64,000 nt of DNA from a phage: sequence record PZ452579.1; one strand, given 5' to 3'. Positions within the stretch are counted from its first letter, which is position 1. Each line of letters opens with the position of its first letter. Positions 1,240 through 36,466 of this stretch are shown here, one piece after another. The notes beneath the pieces were generated by a model. That model had not been told where the DNA came from and did no database searches. It worked only from the letters and a program-made list of their open reading frames with translations. The position numbers were made by a program, and so were the translations under genes.

Positions 1240-1463
1240 TCTAGTTCCTTTGCTGCTTCAAGAGCAGCATCCAGCGAATCAAATTGGTCAACGAAATCAA
1301 TATTCAACGCATCGTCAACCGTAGCATATAACCACCATTGTTTGAATTCATATTCTAGGATAAATCCAGGCCCTTCAATCTGAGGAAGACCTAGGCTATT
1401 TGTACCAACTTCGTAACCAGCTAGACGCAGGTCATTAATCAAAGTTTCTGTTAATACGCTCAT
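1236..1463 (-). CDS. hypothetical acidic protein (75 aa)
   Basis: ORF with SD AAGG; ATGA overlap coupling to neighbours. Confidence 0.55.
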   Translation of the reverse strand: MSVLTETLINDLRLAGYEVGTNSLGLPQIEGPGFILEYEFKQWWLYATVDDALNIDFVDQFDSLDAALEAAKELE

Positions 1464-1792
1464 TTTACCGCCTTAACAATTTTCAGGTCAACGAATTTTT
1501 TCTTACGTTGATTTTTCATACGACGGATAGTCTTTTCAGAGATTTCATGTTTCTGATAAGCTTTAGATTCAACACCAAATGCAGCAACGTCAAATTCAGA
1601 AAGAATATATTGTACTAGAATTTCACGAATAGAATTACGTCCAATTTTCTGGTCGTGTTTTTGCATGATTTCATAAAGACGGAATTCCCACGCGTCAAGA
1701 ACTTGAGGAGTAACAATATTGCCGGATTCCAGAAGAGCAACAACTTTATCGAAAGCGAAAGAATTAACTACGTTTTTGATTTTAGTAGACAT
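1460..1792 (-). CDS. hypothetical protein (110 aa)
   Basis: Start moved to ATG (MSTKIKNVV...) 8 nt after SD GAGG; promoter cassette directly upstream. Confidence 0.6.
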   Translation of the reverse strand: MSTKIKNVVNSFAFDKVVALLESGNIVTPQVLDAWEFRLYEIMQKHDQKIGRNSIREILVQYILSEFDVAAFGVESKAYQKHEISEKTIRRMKNQRKKKFVDLKIVKAVK

Positions 1793-1829
1793 ATTATTTT
1801 CCTCGGTTATTTTATTATCCAACGAGAGA

Positions 1830-1858
1830 ATTATACTCATCTCTCAAGAGTTTGTATA
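1830..1858 (-). promoter_or_regulatory. sigma70-type early promoter (-35 TATACA, 17 nt, -10 TATAAT) with -10 inside inverted repeat GAGAGA/TCTCTC
   Basis: Read on minus strand; near-identical cassette recurs at 31379..31407. Confidence 0.55.
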
Positions 1859-2098
1859 CTATTTTTTAAGCATGAAAAGTAAGTAATTTGTATCACGTGG
1901 AGTAATATCAACACCCATATCAAAGATGCCTTTATAGATTGGGTATTTGTTTTCGGTTGTATCGAAGCTGAAACTATTTCCATCACAACTAACAGTAATA
2001 GCATCTGTTAAAATGTCATACTCAATCCTAACAATTGAATCCCCAATTTTAACGTCGAGGTGTTTTTTGAATTTGATAAAATCTAATTCTTGGGCCAT
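1859..2098 (-). CDS. hypothetical protein (79 aa)
   Basis: ORF with SD AGGA 7 nt upstream of ATG. Confidence 0.55.
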   Translation of the reverse strand: MAQELDFIKFKKHLDVKIGDSIVRIEYDILTDAITVSCDGNSFSFDTTENKYPIYKGIFDMGVDITPRDTNYLLFMLKK

Positions 2099-16910: not shown

Positions 16911-16937
16911 AAAAAGCCCCAACCTTTCGGAAGGGGC
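16911..16937 (-). terminator. rho-independent terminator GCCCCUUCC-GAAA-GGUUGGGGC + U5
   Basis: GNRA-loop hairpin plus T-tract after 16943..17500; identical 27-mer at 17534 and 33433. Confidence 0.6.
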
Positions 16938-16942
16938 TTTGA

Positions 16943-17533: not shown

Positions 17534-17560
17534 AAAAAGCCCCAACCTTTCGGAAGGGGC
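17534..17560 (-). terminator. rho-independent terminator (identical 27-mer)
   Basis: AAAAAGCCCCAACCTTTCGGAAGGGGC on plus strand; after rI. Confidence 0.6.
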
Positions 17561-17567
17561 AGGTAAA

Positions 17568-20450: not shown

Positions 20451-20909
20451 CTAGATTTTAATCACTGCTTTAGAAGCTTTTCCTGGTAGTCGTTTACTGT
20501 TAATAATAGCCATTCTGCATTGAAGAGTCTTCATTTTGAATGCTGGATTTTCGCGACAAACTGTAAGTCCTAACCAAAGATTTCCATCAGTTATTTCTAA
20601 ACGGCCTGGGCGATATTCGACACCTTCGACAAAATCTTCATCAACATCTGGACGTGCCGGCATTGATAAAAATTCTGCAACTTCTTTAACATGATTTTTT
20701 ACTTTACGAAATAATTCAAAAACGTAATTCTCATCTATTTCTCTCTGGATGGCACGATCTAAGAGATGTTGAGAATACTTGATATGAAAGCCTGGTAGTC
20801 CAAGAGACTTTGCAGCATCTTTTATACAGGCATTGATTTGACGAAACTCCGTTTCAAAGATTCGACGGAGTTTATTGCGACGGATAAAAACTTCCGAATT
20901 GATAGTCAT
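20451..20909 (-). CDS. regB: RegB endoribonuclease
   Basis: 152 aa; MTINSEVFIRRNKLRRIFETEFRQIN... matches recalled T4 RegB. Confidence 0.9.
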   Translation of the reverse strand: MTINSEVFIRRNKLRRIFETEFRQINACIKDAAKSLGLPGFHIKYSQHLLDRAIQREIDENYVFELFRKVKNHVKEVAEFLSMPARPDVDEDFVEGVEYRPGRLEITDGNLWLGLTVCRENPAFKMKTLQCRMAIINSKRLPGKASKAVIKI

Positions 20910-20937: not shown

Positions 20938-20966
20938 ATAATAACACAACTACTGGAGAAGTAAAC
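20938..20966 (-). promoter_or_regulatory. early promoter cassette (PeSL-like)
   Basis: -35 GTTTAC, 17 nt, -10 TATTAT on minus strand upstream of regB. Confidence 0.55.
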
Positions 20967-22879: not shown

Positions 22880-23052
22880 TTAGTTTCTCTTTTAGGTTGG
22901 GGCCATTCCGTGGCACATGTTAGGTCCTTCGACTCGCTATGTAAACCCATTACCGCATTGCGCTCGACCTTATTACAGGTTGGAAAAGGTACATCACTCA
23001 GAGGACTCGACGTTCATGAGGAGAGGTTGCGTTTCCCTTTATTAGGCAAGAA

Positions 23053-23382
23053 TTATACTCTAGGCTTTTGAGCTTGTTTGGTATTGGATTCCCATGCGGC
23101 TTTGGTAATTTTGTTAGCGGCATAACCAAAGGCATTAGATAGAACACCTTTAGAGTTGAATACATCCAATCCAATAAGTACACCGGCTGTGTTAAATTTA
23201 GGAGCAAAGTACGCATTAGTTTTAGAAAGAGCTTTTTTCAATTCAGGGTCTTGAACCAAGCCATCAAAAACGCCTTTACTATTTACTTTATATGTTACTT
23301 TGGGATTTTTACCTTCTTCGATAGCAGCTTTCTGTTCCGCAGATAATGTAACTTCAGTGATAAACTCTTGATACGTTTTCAT
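23053..23382 (-). CDS. internal-protein-like, capsid-targeting leader MKTYQEFITE
   Basis: N-terminal 10 aa match T4 IP capsid-targeting sequence; SD AGGA. Confidence 0.7.
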   Translation of the reverse strand: MKTYQEFITEVTLSAEQKAAIEEGKNPKVTYKVNSKGVFDGLVQDPELKKALSKTNAYFAPKFNTAGVLIGLDVFNSKGVLSNAFGYAANKITKAAWESNTKQAQKPRV

Positions 23383-23407
23383 TTTGTTCCTATTGTTTTA
23401 ATTTATG

Positions 23408-23722
23408 TTATTCTTTAGGGAAGTTTTTAGAGTATGCGTCATAAAGTTTATTACCGATGCGACGGAAGACTTTAGCTGCAAAACGGTTTTCAGGGTTTTT
23501 AATCATGATTTGCATCATGTAAGTTCCTGCATCCGAAAGAGCTTCTTCGTAGTACCCATTAATTTCTTTAAGAGTCCTACGTTTACCACCAGGACCATCA
23601 ACAGTAATTTTCCATTTACCTGTAGAAGTGCGGCTCGGTGGCTCAACTTGTTCAATCCAAATATAACCACCTTCAACGCGTTGGTTGGCGGATTCTGCAA
23701 TAAATTCTTTATATGTTTTCAT
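23408..23722 (-). CDS. internal-protein-like, leader MKTYKEFIAE
   Basis: Leader matches T4 IP consensus; 104 aa. Confidence 0.7.
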   Translation of the reverse strand: MKTYKEFIAESANQRVEGGYIWIEQVEPPSRTSTGKWKITVDGPGGKRRTLKEINGYYEEALSDAGTYMMQIMIKNPENRFAAKVFRRIGNKLYDAYSKNFPKE

Positions 23723-23753
23723 TTTTTGTTTCCTTGTTTGTTTTGATAGAGTA

Positions 23754-23783
23754 ATTATACCATATTAATACTTAAGCGTAAAC
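23754..23783 (-). promoter_or_regulatory. early promoter cassette (-35 GTTTAC, 18 nt, -10 TATAAT)
   Basis: Minus strand upstream of 23408..23722. Confidence 0.55.
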
Positions 23784-23786
23784 AAT

Positions 23787-24047
23787 TTAAGCTTTACCGC
23801 CAGAAATAATTCCGAAGTTGTTAAAATCGTATCCAATATCGTCAACATCTACTTTAGGACTTACTACAACATAAGCAATTTCACTACGTTTTGCATAGGT
23901 GTTGATTTCTTTACCATCGCCACCTAAGAAAGAATACCCATTACGTTTTAATGAGCCAAAGTCTTCCGCATCACCAATGAAAGCTTTAACTTTAAATTTG
24001 GGGTCTTTGGCATCTGCTTCAGCTATAAATTCTTGATACATTTTCAT
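23787..24047 (-). CDS. internal-protein-like, leader MKMYQEFIAE
   Basis: Leader matches T4 IP consensus; 86 aa. Confidence 0.7.
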   Translation of the reverse strand: MKMYQEFIAEADAKDPKFKVKAFIGDAEDFGSLKRNGYSFLGGDGKEINTYAKRSEIAYVVVSPKVDVDDIGYDFNNFGIISGGKA

Positions 24048-24053
24048 TTTTCC

Positions 24054-24467
24054 TTAGTAAATTGATTTACCATAGTATTTGTACCAAGTCGGACGTTGAG
24101 CAATTTTTTCATCTAAGCGTGCTTGACTTATCGCAATGGACGCTTCGGACGGGACGTAATTATTACGAAATTCTACAGGGATGTCGGAAATATCCTGGAC
24201 AGTCGTGTCCTTGATTTTGAAACCACGTTTCAAACATTCGGCGATTAGCTCGATTTGTCGTAAACGTAAAAATTCAAGTTTGTCGTAAAAGAATGTTACG
24301 TGACCTGTGCCTAAGATAAATGTTGGAGAGATTTTAAAATCCTTTACACGTTTACCGTTTTGAACATGTTTACGGACTGCACCAAATACGCGTGGTAATT
24401 CACGATACTCAGCCATAAGATGTTGGTCGGTCAGTTCAGAAACAAGTGTTAAATTGATACGGGTCAT
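24054..24467 (-). CDS. denV: endonuclease V (pyrimidine dimer DNA glycosylase)
   Basis: 137 aa from [33 protein letters not shown]...; matches recalled T4 DenV. Confidence 0.9.
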
Positions 24468-24494
24468 AATTTCCTCCAAGTAGTTGATGAATGT

Positions 24495-24524
24495 ATAGTA
24501 TCAAAACCCTTGGAGGAAGTAAAC
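24495..24524 (-). promoter_or_regulatory. early promoter cassette (-35 GTTTAC; -10 TACTAT-like)
   Basis: Minus strand upstream of denV. Confidence 0.5.
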
Positions 24525-24525
24525 A

Positions 24526-24807
24526 CTATTTTTCTGAAGCGCCTGAAATATATTTTTCAAGTCGTTGCTTCATTAGCGAGCCGTTCTTAGCGATTTCTTC
24601 CGGTTTATCGCACATACGTAACAAGGCTTCAAGCTTAGCGATATCGCTGGTACGTTCAAATTTGCGAGTATCTATCTTACTAGCAAGTTCAGAAATACGT
24701 GCTAATAGACTTTCGGCTTCAACCAAAGCTGCACCTAGCTTAGTTGCAAATGTGTCAGTAGCTTCGTTAAGAATAGATTCTGATAAAAATTCACTATATG
24801 TTTTCAT
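24526..24807 (-). CDS. internal-protein-like, leader [10 protein letters not shown]
   Basis: ATG overlaps lysozyme stop (ATGA); leader matches IP consensus. Confidence 0.65.
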
Positions 24808-25292
24808 ATATACGCTTTCCAAGTTCCTGTTTTAAATGTTGAGATTACGCGTTTCGCGCGATTAGGTGTCTGACGATACCATTTAGATTGGGCTAGATTT
24901 ACTGCCGCCTCGTCCCAACGTTTCTGTTGAAGCATACGAAGAGAATTAGTAAAACCGGCGACGCCTGCTACACCCATTTGGAAGACCATATTGACCAATG
25001 CACATCGACGAACCGCATCTAAAGAATCATATACCGGTTTAAGTTTAGCATTACCCAAGATTCCGCGAACGGCTTTATCAACGTCTTCATTAAATAGCTT
25101 TTCAGCCTCATCAAGGGTAATTGTACCGTTGCATTTACGTCCGATCATTCTGTCAAGTTCAGCTTTAGCTACGGCTAAAGACGGGTTCTTTGTTACTAAA
25201 TGGCCTATGCCAATCGTCCAAAAGCCTTCAGTGTCTTTGTATAAAGTCAGTCTAAGACCTTCGTCATTACGAAGCATTTCAAATATATTCAT
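24804..25292 (-). CDS. e: lysozyme (endolysin)
   Basis: 162 aa from [31 protein letters not shown]...; matches recalled T4 lysozyme; SD GGAGG. Confidence 0.9.
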
Positions 25293-27508: not shown

Positions 27509-27538
27509 ACTATAACATAATCCTATAATTGTGTAAAC
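27509..27538 (-). promoter_or_regulatory. early promoter cassette (PeSL-like)
   Basis: -35 GTTTAC, 18 nt, -10 TATAGT on minus strand. Confidence 0.55.
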
Positions 27539-30743: not shown

Positions 30744-31337
30744 TTATTTCAAAGAGTTAATATATTCTTGTACATCAGCAGAAGTGGTTTCGACACCGGC
30801 TGGAGTGCCATTGAACGTTTCAACACGAGTCAGAGTGTCTTCGATATCAACCTTAGTCAGTGCAGCGATTTCAATTACATCATCAGCCGTAGAGATACCA
30901 AGGGCATTGGCTGCTCGAGTTTCACGAATGTATTCGAGTTTGATTGCCAGGTTCTGACGAGCATCGTCAAGTTCAACCACCTTACGAGCAATTTCAATTC
31001 GCATAGCGGCATACCCGTCAGCTTTTGTATTAAGTTGTTCGGCAGTTCGACGATACAGAAGACCAAGCTTAGCATGCATGGTAACATCTTGTCCTTCGGC
31101 CAGGAGCTTACGAATTTCACGTTCCTTAGAAGCGGCTTGCTTGTTCTTTTCATTAACAAGTTCGCGAATACGTTTTTCTTCATTAATAGATTTAACAGAA
31201 GCCGTTTTTAGTTCTTTGATTTGGGTAATCAACTTATCTGCAGCTGCGTTATACTGTTCTTCGACAGTCAGATTTTTAGCCATAGCAGTACCCAGTTTAG
31301 TGCGGATGAATTCAACAAGTTTCTTCAGTGTGTTCAT
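30744..31337 (-). CDS. coiled-coil protein (197 aa)
   Basis: Start at ATG ([10 protein letters not shown]...); track M1 is TTG; long helical heptad-like sequence. Confidence 0.55.
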
Positions 31338-31378
31338 ATTATTACCTTTCAATTGGTGGTTTATTATCCAACGAGAGC

Positions 31379-31407
31379 ATTATACTCTGCTCTCAAGAGT
31401 TTGTAAA
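31379..31407 (-). promoter_or_regulatory. sigma70-type early promoter (-35 TTTACA, 17 nt, -10 TATAAT) with -10 inside inverted repeat GAGAGC/GCTCTC
   Basis: Copy of the 1830 cassette with compensatory base change in the stem. Confidence 0.55.
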
Positions 31408-32721: not shown

Positions 32722-32769
32722 GAGGCCCGGAAAGGCCTAGATACCAAAAAGCCCTATCATTTAGATAGG
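32722..32769 (-). terminator. tandem hairpins (CCCUAUC-n5-GAUAGGG + U-tract; AGGCC-n6-GGCCU)
   Basis: Immediately after stop of 32779..33342. Confidence 0.55.
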
Positions 32770-32778
32770 GATTTAAAA

Positions 32779-33342
32779 TTATTTACCTAGTTTAGTTATT
32801 ATAGCTTCGGCAGCAGCTTTTAGCTTAGATGCAGTGTTAATACGATTTTTAATTTCAGTATACGCATCGCCAAGAACATCAAGGCTATCAGAATAAACAC
32901 TTACACTATTGCGTTCGCTATTTGAAATAGAACCTTTAGTTTTACGATCAAAATCAGTGTACACGTCTTGAAGATCACGGGCTGCCTTCTTTGCATCATC
33001 CAATGCATCAAGAGCTTTATTCAAAGCATTGACATATTTTTTAGTGTCAAACATATTCTTAGAAATTTTAACAGGTGCACGTTCAGGAGTAGCTAAGGCG
33101 GATTTAGGAACCTGCGTGCCAGATGCCAGTTTCTTAGAAATTTTGAAAAACGCTTTATTGAAACTATTTTCTTGTCTCATCGTAAAAGAACTAGTATCGA
33201 TGTTATACATTTCAATAGCTTTAGCTTTCCACTTAAGAAAATCGCCGCGGTCTTTTGGATCCAAGTGGAAGAATACTTTAGTAAGATCTGCTTCAGATGG
33301 TAATTTTGCTGCTTCGGTTAAAAATTCGGCATAGGTTTTCAT
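32779..33342 (-). CDS. internal-protein-like (187 aa), leader MKTYAEFLTE
   Basis: Leader matches T4 IP consensus; Lys/Ala-rich helical body. Confidence 0.7.
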   Translation of the reverse strand: MKTYAEFLTEAAKLPSEADLTKVFFHLDPKDRGDFLKWKAKAIEMYNIDTSSFTMRQENSFNKAFFKISKKLASGTQVPKSALATPERAPVKISKNMFDTKKYVNALNKALDALDDAKKAARDLQDVYTDFDRKTKGSISNSERNSVSVYSDSLDVLGDAYTEIKNRINTASKLKAAAEAIITKLGK

Positions 33343-33432
33343 TTAAAATCCTTGAAATAATTTATCGGTTGGTTATTAATTATTTATTACTTTGTTATTA
33401 TCAGTAACAGCATTCTCTGAGTGATTCAAACT

Positions 33433-33459
33433 AAAAAGCCCCAACCTTTCGGAAGGGGC
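33433..33459 (-). terminator. rho-independent terminator (identical 27-mer)
   Basis: Third copy of AAAAAGCCCCAACCTTTCGGAAGGGGC. Confidence 0.6.
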
Positions 33460-33771
33460 TAAGCCTTGCGGCAACCTTGTCGGGGTTCCACCTGCTAAGG
33501 CAAGTGTTTGTACGAAACGCCGGGATTCGAACCCGGTTATTAAGTAGTTGACGCTACTCAATATTTTTAAAAGGCCATATCTCGACCATATCCGAACGTT
33601 CCGTCAAAAACGCTACTCGGCTTACGGCAAAGATATTTCCTCGAATCGATAATTCTGTGCGCCGTTTCTGCTGTGATGTAATGGGATATTAACAAATCGT
33701 AAAGATTTATTAAGACCAGTCCTTACTCAGGGAACATCAGTCCGACGACTTACCGGTAGCGACCCGGCTTC
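33460..33771 (-). ncRNA. candidate small stable RNA with tRNA-like T-arm
   Basis: No credible ORF; CCGGG-TTCGAAT-CCCGG T-arm-like element at 33516..33536 (minus sense); no canonical cloverleaf found. Confidence 0.25.
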
Positions 33772-34134: not shown

Positions 34135-34211
<77 letters not shown>

Positions 34212-34217
34212 AATATA

Positions 34218-34291
34218 TGACCCAGACCAGATTCGAACTGGTAACCTTTCCCTTATGAGGGGACTGCTGCTAACCATTGAGCTACAGGGCC
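34218..34291 (-). tRNA. tRNA with CAU anticodon (Ile2-like or Met)
   Basis: 5' end and T-arm resemble E. coli tRNA-Ile2; anticodon loop CTCATAA; imperfect acceptor and D stems. Confidence 0.55.
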
Positions 34292-35795: not shown

Positions 35796-36059
35796 TTATT
35801 TCAAATATATTGCGTATTTTTTATAGCCACCAGGCTCGTGTCGAAGACCTTTATCATTCGCAAAACGTTGAATGTTATTGAACTGATTTTCATCAAGTTC
35901 GGATGTGTCAAATATAAAAAAGTTTCGTTTGTTACCAAGCGTGATATGCGGAGTTAAGTCAATGTTATACAAATTAAGAATATCAGCAATAACCTGATTG
36001 ACTGCTTTGTTAATTTTCACACCAGACGATTCTGAGATGAATTCGTTGAAAGTTTTCAT
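35796..36059 (-). CDS. internal-protein-like, leader MKTFNEFISE
   Basis: Start at second ATG; leader is a variant of IP consensus. Confidence 0.6.
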   Translation of the reverse strand: MKTFNEFISESSGVKINKAVNQVIADILNLYNIDLTPHITLGNKRNFFIFDTSELDENQFNNIQRFANDKGLRHEPGGYKKYAIYLK

Positions 36060-36091
36060 TTTAGGTTCCATTTGGTTGTTTTGATAGGACT

Positions 36092-36121
36092 ACTATAACA
36101 TAGTCCTACCATGATGTAAAC
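36092..36121 (-). promoter_or_regulatory. early promoter cassette (PeSL-like)
   Basis: -35 GTTTAC, 18 nt, -10 TATAGT; dyad TAGGACTA/TAGTCCTA. Confidence 0.55.
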
Positions 36122-36432
36122 TATTTTATGCCTTTAGATGAAATAGTATTCTGGCGTTTGACCCCAGTTTGTGAAAAATCATGGTTATCAATTTGGTCAA
36201 CTCGCATAACACCAAACGCAGATTTAATTTTGGCCTTTGAACCTTTTTTGATACTAATTACCATATAAGTATCATTTTTCTTATATTCGAAATTTGATAC
36301 TTCAACGCCTTGATTAGAAATTGACTTAATAATAGCATTAGCGTATTCATCATCTAACGGGCCGTTAGTGTTAATAACAAAATTTTTATCCGCTTTAGTA
36401 GCTTCCGCGATGAATTCTTGATAGGTTTTCAT
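36121..36432 (-). CDS. internal-protein-like (ipI position), leader MKTYQEFIAE
   Basis: Exact T4 IP leader; 103 aa; adjacent to 57B as ipI is in T4. Confidence 0.7.
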   Translation of the reverse strand: MKTYQEFIAEATKADKNFVINTNGPLDDEYANAIIKSISNQGVEVSNFEYKKNDTYMVISIKKGSKAKIKSAFGVMRVDQIDNHDFSQTGVKRQNTISSKGIK

Positions 36433-36466
36433 TTTATTTCCTTGAGGTTGTTTATTTGATAGGATG

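Follow-up and report, generated by a model that had tools for sequence, protein, structure and literature searches.

A covarying stem-loop over the -10 box of repeated early-promoter cassettes in a T4-like phage

Why is the -10 box of two early promoters in a phage genome held in the loop of an inverted repeat, and in which molecule would that repeat fold? The two promoters lie in a 64,000-nt stretch of phage DNA (PZ452579.1; the whole stretch is referred to below as the window). The initial annotation had described them as near-identical minus-strand cassettes in which one stem position changed on both arms together, and had taken this as a sign of selection on secondary structure, possibly in a dyad-symmetric DNA-binding site or a cruciform. 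The sequences were re-read, and the boxes and coordinates of both cassettes all agree with that description (Table 1).

Two promoter cassettes and their setting

Copies 1 and 2 (family D15) are 29.5 kb apart and 90% identical over 62 nt; a 45-nt pattern spanning both gave two matches against 0.00 expected. On the sense strand copy 1 reads AAAAAATAG-TATACA-AACTCTT-GAGAGA-TGAGTATAAT-TCTCTC-GTTGGATAATAAAA, followed by GAGG and ATG, and copy 2 reads AAAAAATAA-TTTACA-AACTCTT-GAGAGC-AGAGTATAAT-GCTCTC-GTTGGATAATAAAC, followed by AAGG and ATG. The arrangement of TATACA or TTTACA, 17 nt and TATAAT is a 10/12 match to a sigma-70-type promoter with the AT-rich AAAAAATA upstream, and the annotators of phage ATK48 marked copy 2 as a consensus host promoter. 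A third apparent copy at 23049-23085 (family D13) was rejected as a cassette because it has no -35 box, stem or downstream gene start.

Table 1. Cassette features and neighboring or related genes in the window
Feature	Sequence	Position	Strand	Remark
79-aa ORF upstream of copy 1		1859-2098	(-)	TAG stop at 1861-1859
A-tract (UP-like) and TAG stop of the 79-aa ORF		1859..1867	(-)	
Copy 1, -35 box	TATACA	1858-1853	(-)	GTATAC-A, T4 early type; 17-nt spacer
Copy 1, spacer 5' of the stem arm	AAACTCTT	1853-1846	(-)	Invariant in the family
Copy 1, 5' stem arm	GAGAGA	1845-1840	(-)	Promoter positions -22 to -17
Copy 1, loop	TGAGTATAAT	1830..1839	(-)	Holds the -10 box
Copy 1, -10 box	TATAAT	1835-1830	(-)	
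Copy 1, 3' stem arm	TCTCTC	1829-1824	(-)	Promoter positions -6 to -1
Copy 1, presumed transcription start	G	1823	(-)	From spacing; column is a purine in all family members
Copy 1, candidate RegB site	GGATAATAAAA	1820-1810	(-)	Perfect RegB/S1 consensus match, 3 nt after the stem; leader +4 to +14
gp55.2-like gene (DUF7570, phrog_1475), downstream of copy 1		1460..1804	(-)	Includes SD GAGG 1804-1801; ATG 1792-1790
TAA stop of frd.3-like ORF, upstream of copy 2		31410-31408	(-)	
Copy 2, -35 box	TTTACA	31407-31402	(-)	17-nt spacer
Copy 2, 5' stem arm	GAGAGC	31394-31389	(-)	
Copy 2, loop	AGAGTATAAT	31379..31388	(-)	Holds the -10 box
Copy 2, -10 box	TATAAT	31384-31379	(-)	
Copy 2, 3' stem arm	GCTCTC	31378-31373	(-)	
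Copy 2, presumed transcription start	G	31372	(-)	
Copy 2, candidate RegB site	GGATAATAAAC	31359..31369	(-)	RegB-like, 10/11 consensus positions
197-aa gene, phrog_1203, downstream of copy 2		30744..31337	(-)	ATG at 31337; SD AAGG
regB endoribonuclease gene		20451..20909	(-)	PF10715, E=7.7e-69
Two adjacent tRNA genes (Rfam RF00005)		34138-34291	(-)	Match the tRNA cluster annotated in ATK48

Mosigvirus genomes (T4-like Straboviridae) are 97-98% identical to the window across the gp55-nrdG-nrdD early region. All genes near the two cassettes are on the minus strand, and the minus strand is the sense strand. Copy 1 is placed between the 79-aa ORF and the gp55.2 homologue, and copy 2 between the frd.3 homologue and the 197-aa protein; in each case the upstream stop codon directly precedes the -35 box, and the complete intergenic space is 66-70 nt. 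Copy 1 drives the gp55.2-like gene and copy 2 the 197-aa gene. An Rfam search of the window returned the two tRNAs only and no family for the cassette hairpin.

Covariation of the stem and the strand that folds

The two window copies differ at five positions in a 57-nt core, and two of the five are the loop-closing pair, A:T in copy 1 and C:G in copy 2; the paired substitution reported in the initial annotation is thus present. When five random substitutions were simulated, a compensated pair arose in 1.3% of trials, or in 0.7% if the other stem positions had to stay intact. Predicted stem energies are -7.8 kcal/mol for copy 1 and -11.9 kcal/mol for copy 2, with z values of -1.6 and -3.5, respectively. 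Taken alone, the two window copies make a case for structure selection that is suggestive, not decisive.

The wider sample consisted of 35 distinct copies, collected with patterns that fixed the flanks and the -10 box only and left every stem position free, together with divergent BLAST matches that were fetched. They come from Mosigvirus, Dhakavirus, Gaprivervirus, Tequatrovirus and Klebsiella straboviruses and occupy at least eight loci, including those upstream of 55.2, upstream of motB and downstream of frd.3, pseT.2 and ndd.1. A metagenome scan with GAGTATAAT-N9-GGATAATAAA gave mostly chance matches (6/27 were genuine cassettes) and contributed the last of the seven stems found: GAGAGA/TCTCTC, GAGAGC/GCTCTC, GGGAGC/GCTCCC, GGGACC/GGTCCC, GGGAGT/ACTCCC, GGGGTC/GACCCC and GAGGAC/GTCCTC. 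The T4 motB upstream region is a member of the family, with the order GTTTACAAACTCTT-GGGACC-AGAGTATAAT-GGTCCC-GT-GGAGTATAAAA.

In the alignment of the 35 copies the 6-7 bp stem is paired in 99.2% of cells, and compensatory changes on both sides occur at four of the seven stem pairs. The covariation score is 0.586 compared to 0.283 in shuffles, none of 500 shuffles reached the observed value, and RNAalifold recovered the same helix without prompting. Pairing fell to 36-60% in a control in which the partner columns were slid, and seven chance matches to the flank pattern that have no -35 box, used as a negative control, show no pairing. The initial annotation had proposed tabulating covariation in additional copies and looking for uncompensated stem substitutions; among the 35 copies the only one-sided changes are G.U wobbles. 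We concluded that the stem is maintained by compensatory evolution across many related phages. The wider sample makes the case for pairing selection strong, and in this respect the early proposal of selection on secondary structure is borne out. The surroundings of the stem are equally regular: the 3' arm always abuts the -10 box, a purine always comes next at the expected +1, and the spacer AAACTCTT varies no more than the -10 box itself, which is unusual for a sigma-70 spacer.

Two further variants were seen in individual genomes. At locus 1 of phage 308Ecol101PP a 2-nt TC insertion turns the 3' arm into GCTCTCTC, and pairing with GAGAGC is kept via register slippage. A third cassette copy, GAGAGC/GCTCTC followed by ATGGATTACAAAAA, is present in the Mosigvirus contig IMGVR_UViG_2974739009_000001 and a relative (L048/L077); it lies upstream of a gene starting MSKY..., at a locus absent from the window, and genomes of this type account for the entries with three places per record in the cassette BLAST table. 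The cassette is matched by ∼380 INPHARED records.

The one-sided changes carry information on the molecule that folds. They fill 27 cells, amount to approximately 5-7 independent events at four stem positions, and are all G.U on the sense strand; A.C on the sense strand was not found among one-sided stem changes in the 35 copies. Sense-strand G.T wobbles are A.C mismatches on the antisense strand, and the sense-only bias therefore favors a structure of the single sense strand, which would be RNA, over a cruciform or a dyad protein site. A symmetric cruciform or double-stranded site is disfavored because both kinds of wobble would be expected equally, and a sequence-specific protein site is disfavored because seven stem sequences change while complementarity stays. 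Hairpins over promoters of the first class elsewhere in the window show the same tendency: two have sense-only wobbles and six are clearly more stable on the sense strand, by ∼2 to 7 kcal/mol. The asymmetry is limited to the hairpin-bearing subset; sense and antisense minimum free energies over all 27 early-promoter-like sites of the window do not differ significantly (Wilcoxon p=0.16). Based on the wobble bias, the hairpin most likely forms in RNA, not in DNA, with the reservation that single-stranded DNA also tolerates G.T, so that a hairpin in the non-template DNA strand is not strictly distinguished from RNA by the strand argument.

Relation to RegB sites, the 55.3/55.2 junction and PeSL cassettes

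In the family, a sequence GGA(U/G)RAYARAA begins 2-3 nt after the stem, with an A-rich run after GGA(U/G). The 11-nt RegB/S1 consensus is GGA followed by G, rarely U, and then RAYARAA (PMC1702504, PMC3014915). RegB cuts between G and A in its site, and sequence 5' of GGAG is dispensable for cleavage (PMC1702504); the GGA must be unpaired (PMC3014915). The minimal RegB substrate is GGAGUAUAAAA from the T4 motB leader (PMC1702504), and this sequence is borne by the T4 motB member of the family. In T4, cleavage at GGAU is limited to two sites, in orf 55.2 and in motB.2, and one further GGAU site is cut in RB69, a Mosigvirus (PMC1702504). The T4 orf 55.2 site is the orthologue of the copy 1 site. 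In the window the consensus scan gave four matches in 64 kb compared to 1.4 expected, three of them in minus-strand leaders; the site after the stem lies in an early leader, and the genome encodes regB. The sites after both window stems are thus candidate RegB sites, cleavage being documented for T4 orthologues. For the window copies GGA is predicted to be unpaired with a probability of 0.3-0.6, whether the transcript is read through or starts at the own promoter.

The region upstream of 55.2 was compared with the gp55.2 protein as anchor; wherever the protein was found its upstream region was taken, which gave 15 distinct sequences. A stem-loop stands right after the upstream stop codon in 15/15, and the stems are unrelated between lineages. 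An early promoter lies within the stem-loop in Mosigvirus and Dhakavirus, and another promoter within another stem, of 10 bp, in a phage more distantly related (L100). T4-like phages (T4 NC_000866, 40770-40800 region, L084; L088-L094) have no promoter at the 55.3/55.2 junction; a UUCG-tetraloop stem with a U-run (U5-6) is followed directly by GGAUAAUAAAA, which in T4 is the GGAU site reported to be cleaved by RegB (PMC1702504). What is conserved at this position is thus an intercistronic stem-loop, usually beside a RegB site, with the promoter as an optional tenant. The promoter-less stem-loop argues strongly against a role of the structure in promoter DNA.

Judging from sequence, the element is a PeSL-type (promoter-early stem-loop) cassette of T-even early promoters, an assignment that follows from its promoter, stem-loop, stop-to-start, copy-number and breakpoint features. 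A PeSL consists of an upstream stop, an AT-rich tract, a strong sigma-70-type early promoter, a stem-loop, an SD sequence and a start codon (PMC2839356, PMC4122927), and a stem-loop over the -10 box is one of its commonest layouts (PMC2839356). PeSLs are repeated many times in hyperplastic early regions, lie at recombination breakpoints of close relatives, give mini-circles when adjacent cassettes recombine, and have been reported in RB49/phi1, T4/PST and KVP40/nt-1 (PMC2839356, PMC4122927). The window cassettes share the stop-to-start intergenic composite, the promoter, the stem-loop enclosing the -10 box, the repeated copies and the placement at breakpoints. There are 27 early-promoter-like minus-strand sites between 1.8 and 36.5 kb, 12 of them with a significant hairpin over the -10 box. 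When the window is compared with AV117 at locus 1 or with L005 at locus 2, identity is ∼99-100% from the spacer downstream, whereas the sequence upstream of the -35 box is diverged or unrelated. The window cassettes differ from the published PeSLs in belonging to Mosigvirus, a group outside the published PeSL phages; in forming a sub-family conserved nearly base for base across genera; and in carrying a RegB site after the stem, a link absent from the PeSL papers. Those papers define the cassette by motif, whereas covariation was used here. The "effective terminator" property of PeSLs is doubtful for a short stem without a U-run.

In Salmonella phage Jbel, which is a Tequatrovirus, the copy-2 cassette of Mosigvirus is present as well, and over the ∼140 nt inspected both of its flanks are the same as in the window. 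This suggests that the copy-2 module was exchanged between genera.

Several other known elements resemble the cassette in part. The T4 motB early promoter with its RegB site (Durand et al., 2006, PMC1702504) belongs to this cassette family; that work left the hairpin 5' of the site unconsidered, and the window copies have GGAU, not GGAG. In T4 e, soc, 49 and I-TevI a promoter lies within an RNA hairpin and the origin of the transcript decides its structure (PMC3014915): upstream-initiated RNA folds, and RNA from the internal promoter is made without the 5' arm. Those promoters are late ones, and their hairpins sequester the SD/AUG and block translation, whereas the cassette hairpin ends at -1 and leaves the SD outside. 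Intercistronic stabilizing stem-loops and intrinsic terminators share with the cassette a stem-loop after the stop codon and then an AU-rich, cleavage-prone stretch, the T4-like version having UUCG and a U-run. The cassette stem is much shorter than typical stabilizers and overlaps a functional promoter, and unlike intrinsic terminators the Mosigvirus and Dhakavirus versions have no U-run. No U-tract follows the stem in the window copies (GUUGGAUAAU; GUUGGAU follows), and the terminator scan gave no match at the cassettes. Classical intrinsic termination is therefore unlikely at the window copies, and a rho-independent terminator was rejected for them; the T4-like counterpart fits that description.

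Possible role of the hairpin on read-through RNA

On the sense strand the module runs from the stop codon through an A-tract, a GTTTAC-like -35 box, AAACTCTT, the 5' arm and a 10-nt loop with GAG and TATAAT to the 3' arm, the purine at +1, 2-3 nt, the RegB-type site, the leader, the SD and the ATG. The 3' arm fills positions -6 to -1, before the start, so transcripts from the cassette's own promoter have no hairpin; since the start follows the 3' arm, both arms are found together only in RNA that enters the cassette from the upstream gene. RNA of this kind should exist, because no canonical terminator was found between neighboring cassettes. We hold with moderate confidence that, in read-through RNA, the hairpin serves as a boundary element for the upstream cistron. 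It would attenuate or pause read-through from the upstream gene, and RegB or RNase E would cut the AU-rich stretch 4-5 nt past the stem, leaving the hairpin at the 3' end; its tail would be too short for 3' exonucleases to engage, and the upstream message would thereby be shielded. As the stem is short (6-7 bp), the hairpin may be a weak exonuclease block. The cassette's own transcripts, having no hairpin, would expose the RegB site at their 5' end; a RegB cut would strip the triphosphate end, and phosphorylation by T4 PNK would open the RNA to RNase E/G. Exposure to RNase E/G after phosphorylation by T4 PNK is described for RegB products (PMC3014915). The overlap with the -10 box would be a packing solution for a 66-nt intergenic space and not a DNA-level device. 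Our literature search found no transcript-end maps for Mosigvirus.

Ranked second after the boundary model is a switch that depends on transcript origin, which we regard as a lesser possibility. In read-through RNA the spacer CUCU, drawn near by the covarying inner stem, would pair with GGA(G/U) of the RegB site and hide it, and RNA from the own promoter would expose it and be cut; RNA of one and the same gene would be RegB-sensitive when immediate-early and resistant when read through in the delayed-early or middle period. The invariance of AAACTCTT fits this, as does the need of RegB for an unpaired GGA (PMC3014915). For the variants with GGAG, those of T4 motB and Gaprivervirus, folding predicts an outer helix ACUCU/GGAGU, and GGA is predicted to be 2-9% unpaired in read-through vs. 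34-94% in own transcripts; six other early promoters of the window, including that of regB, mask the SD/GGAG completely in predicted read-through RNA. However, the window copies themselves are of the GGAU type with three outer pairs, and GGA is 0.39 vs. 0.34 and 0.61 vs. 0.48 unpaired with real vs. shuffled upstream sequence; masking of the RegB site in their read-through RNA was not supported, being no better than with shuffled sequence. The outer helix has no covariation, both sides being invariant, and the T4 55.2 site, which has a hairpin not pairing GGA and no promoter, is still cut in vivo (PMC1702504). If true, such a switch would explain structurally why early transcripts are destroyed by RegB and later ones are not, and would account for conserved T4 early-promoter positions beyond RNA polymerase contacts. 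It is rather improbable that the hairpin is purely a terminator or attenuator, as has been suggested for the stem-loops of PeSLs, stopping polymerase that arrives from the cassette upstream and confining each small gene to its own promoter. One RB49 PeSL stem-loop cut lacZ as much as rrnB T1 did (PMC2839356), and the T4-like stem-loop at the 55.3/55.2 junction is terminator-shaped with its U5-6 run; against this, the window copies have neither a U-run nor a terminator match, and the phage uses canonical GC-rich, T-run terminators elsewhere (family D11).

A device at the DNA level, either a cruciform or dyad operator as the initial annotation had suggested or a non-template hairpin that offers the -10 box to sigma-70 as a single-stranded loop, appears very unlikely. 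The dyad brackets the -10 box exactly, the G.T wobbles would fit a hairpin in the non-template strand, and hairpin promoters exist in phage N4. Pairing is conserved here, however, and the stem sequence is not; the strand asymmetry excludes a symmetric cruciform or double-stranded site, stem-loops remain at the 55.3/55.2 junction where the promoter is missing, and hairpins in the window vary in position relative to the -10 box, some reaching the SD. Extrusion of a 6-bp stem with a 10-nt loop would also be energetically implausible. The proposal of a DNA-binding site or cruciform thus did not hold, given the sense-only wobbles, the seven stems and the stem-loop at the same junction without a promoter. 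The least probable explanation, in effect refuted by the wider sample, is that there is no function at all, the copies being alike through duplication or gene conversion in the recent past and the paired change being accidental. The two-copy case alone has p ∼0.01, and phage phiC120 has at locus 1 the stem and loop of copy 2, a sign of exchange between cassettes; but chance is hard to reconcile with seven stem variants, with double compensations that occur several times in different genera and loci, and with the absence of any broken stem.

The boundary model and the data behind it reveal no new kind of system. What appears to be added is the proof by covariation, the bias toward the sense strand and the connection with RegB sites. 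The comparative evidence indicates that some of the "extra consensus" of T-even early promoters is an RNA-level constraint (the covarying stem plus the RegB site) and not a polymerase contact. Two separate literatures, on PeSL recombination cassettes and on RegB mRNA processing, are joined in one 60-nt module that includes the T4 motB promoter. For practical purposes such as promoter reuse or annotation of T4-like genomes, the promoter, hairpin and nuclease site should be treated as a single unit.

Other hairpins and repeats were observed in the window. The first promoter class (GTTTACA ... TGTTATAGT/TATTAT; minus-strand -10 boxes at 2130, 12347, 16418, 27509, 28804, 36092, and 36467) has 8-12 bp hairpins over the -10 box, e.g., ACGATAGGAAGA/TCTTCCTATCGT, GGTAGGACTA/TAGTCCTACC and GGATGAT/ATCATCC, with shuffle z values of -4.6 to -8.3; the sense-only G.U wobbles are in the copies at 27509 and 28804. 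In another set (minus-strand -10 boxes at 24495, 20938 (regB), 16871, 3259, 10705, and 9709) a pyrimidine arm right after the -35 box (TTCTCC, TTCCTCC or TCCTC) pairs with the SD/GGAG, and the ribosome/RegB site is predicted to be 0.00-0.13 unpaired in read-through and ∼0.5-0.7 in the own transcript. The regB promoter (-10 box at 20938-20943) lies in such a hairpin, in which TTCTCC pairs with the SD GGAGAA. The SD-sequestering promoters at 24495, 20938, 16871 and 3259 follow the logic of T4 e/soc/49.

Near-identical canonical minus-strand terminators AGCCCCTTCCGAAAGGTTGGGGCTTTTT are found at 16911-16938, 17534-17561 and 33433-33460, with a weaker one at 32746-32773; classical terminators, which differ from the promoter hairpins, are thus in use elsewhere in this phage. 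Small minus-strand genes at 23351-24820, 33304-33365 and 36028-36445 (families D5, D8, and D10) share the 5' end MKTY(K/Q)EF(I/L)AE, which resembles the capsid-targeting sequence of T4 internal head proteins; their locus is known to be polymorphic. Internal head proteins are annotated nearby in ATK48 and phiC120.
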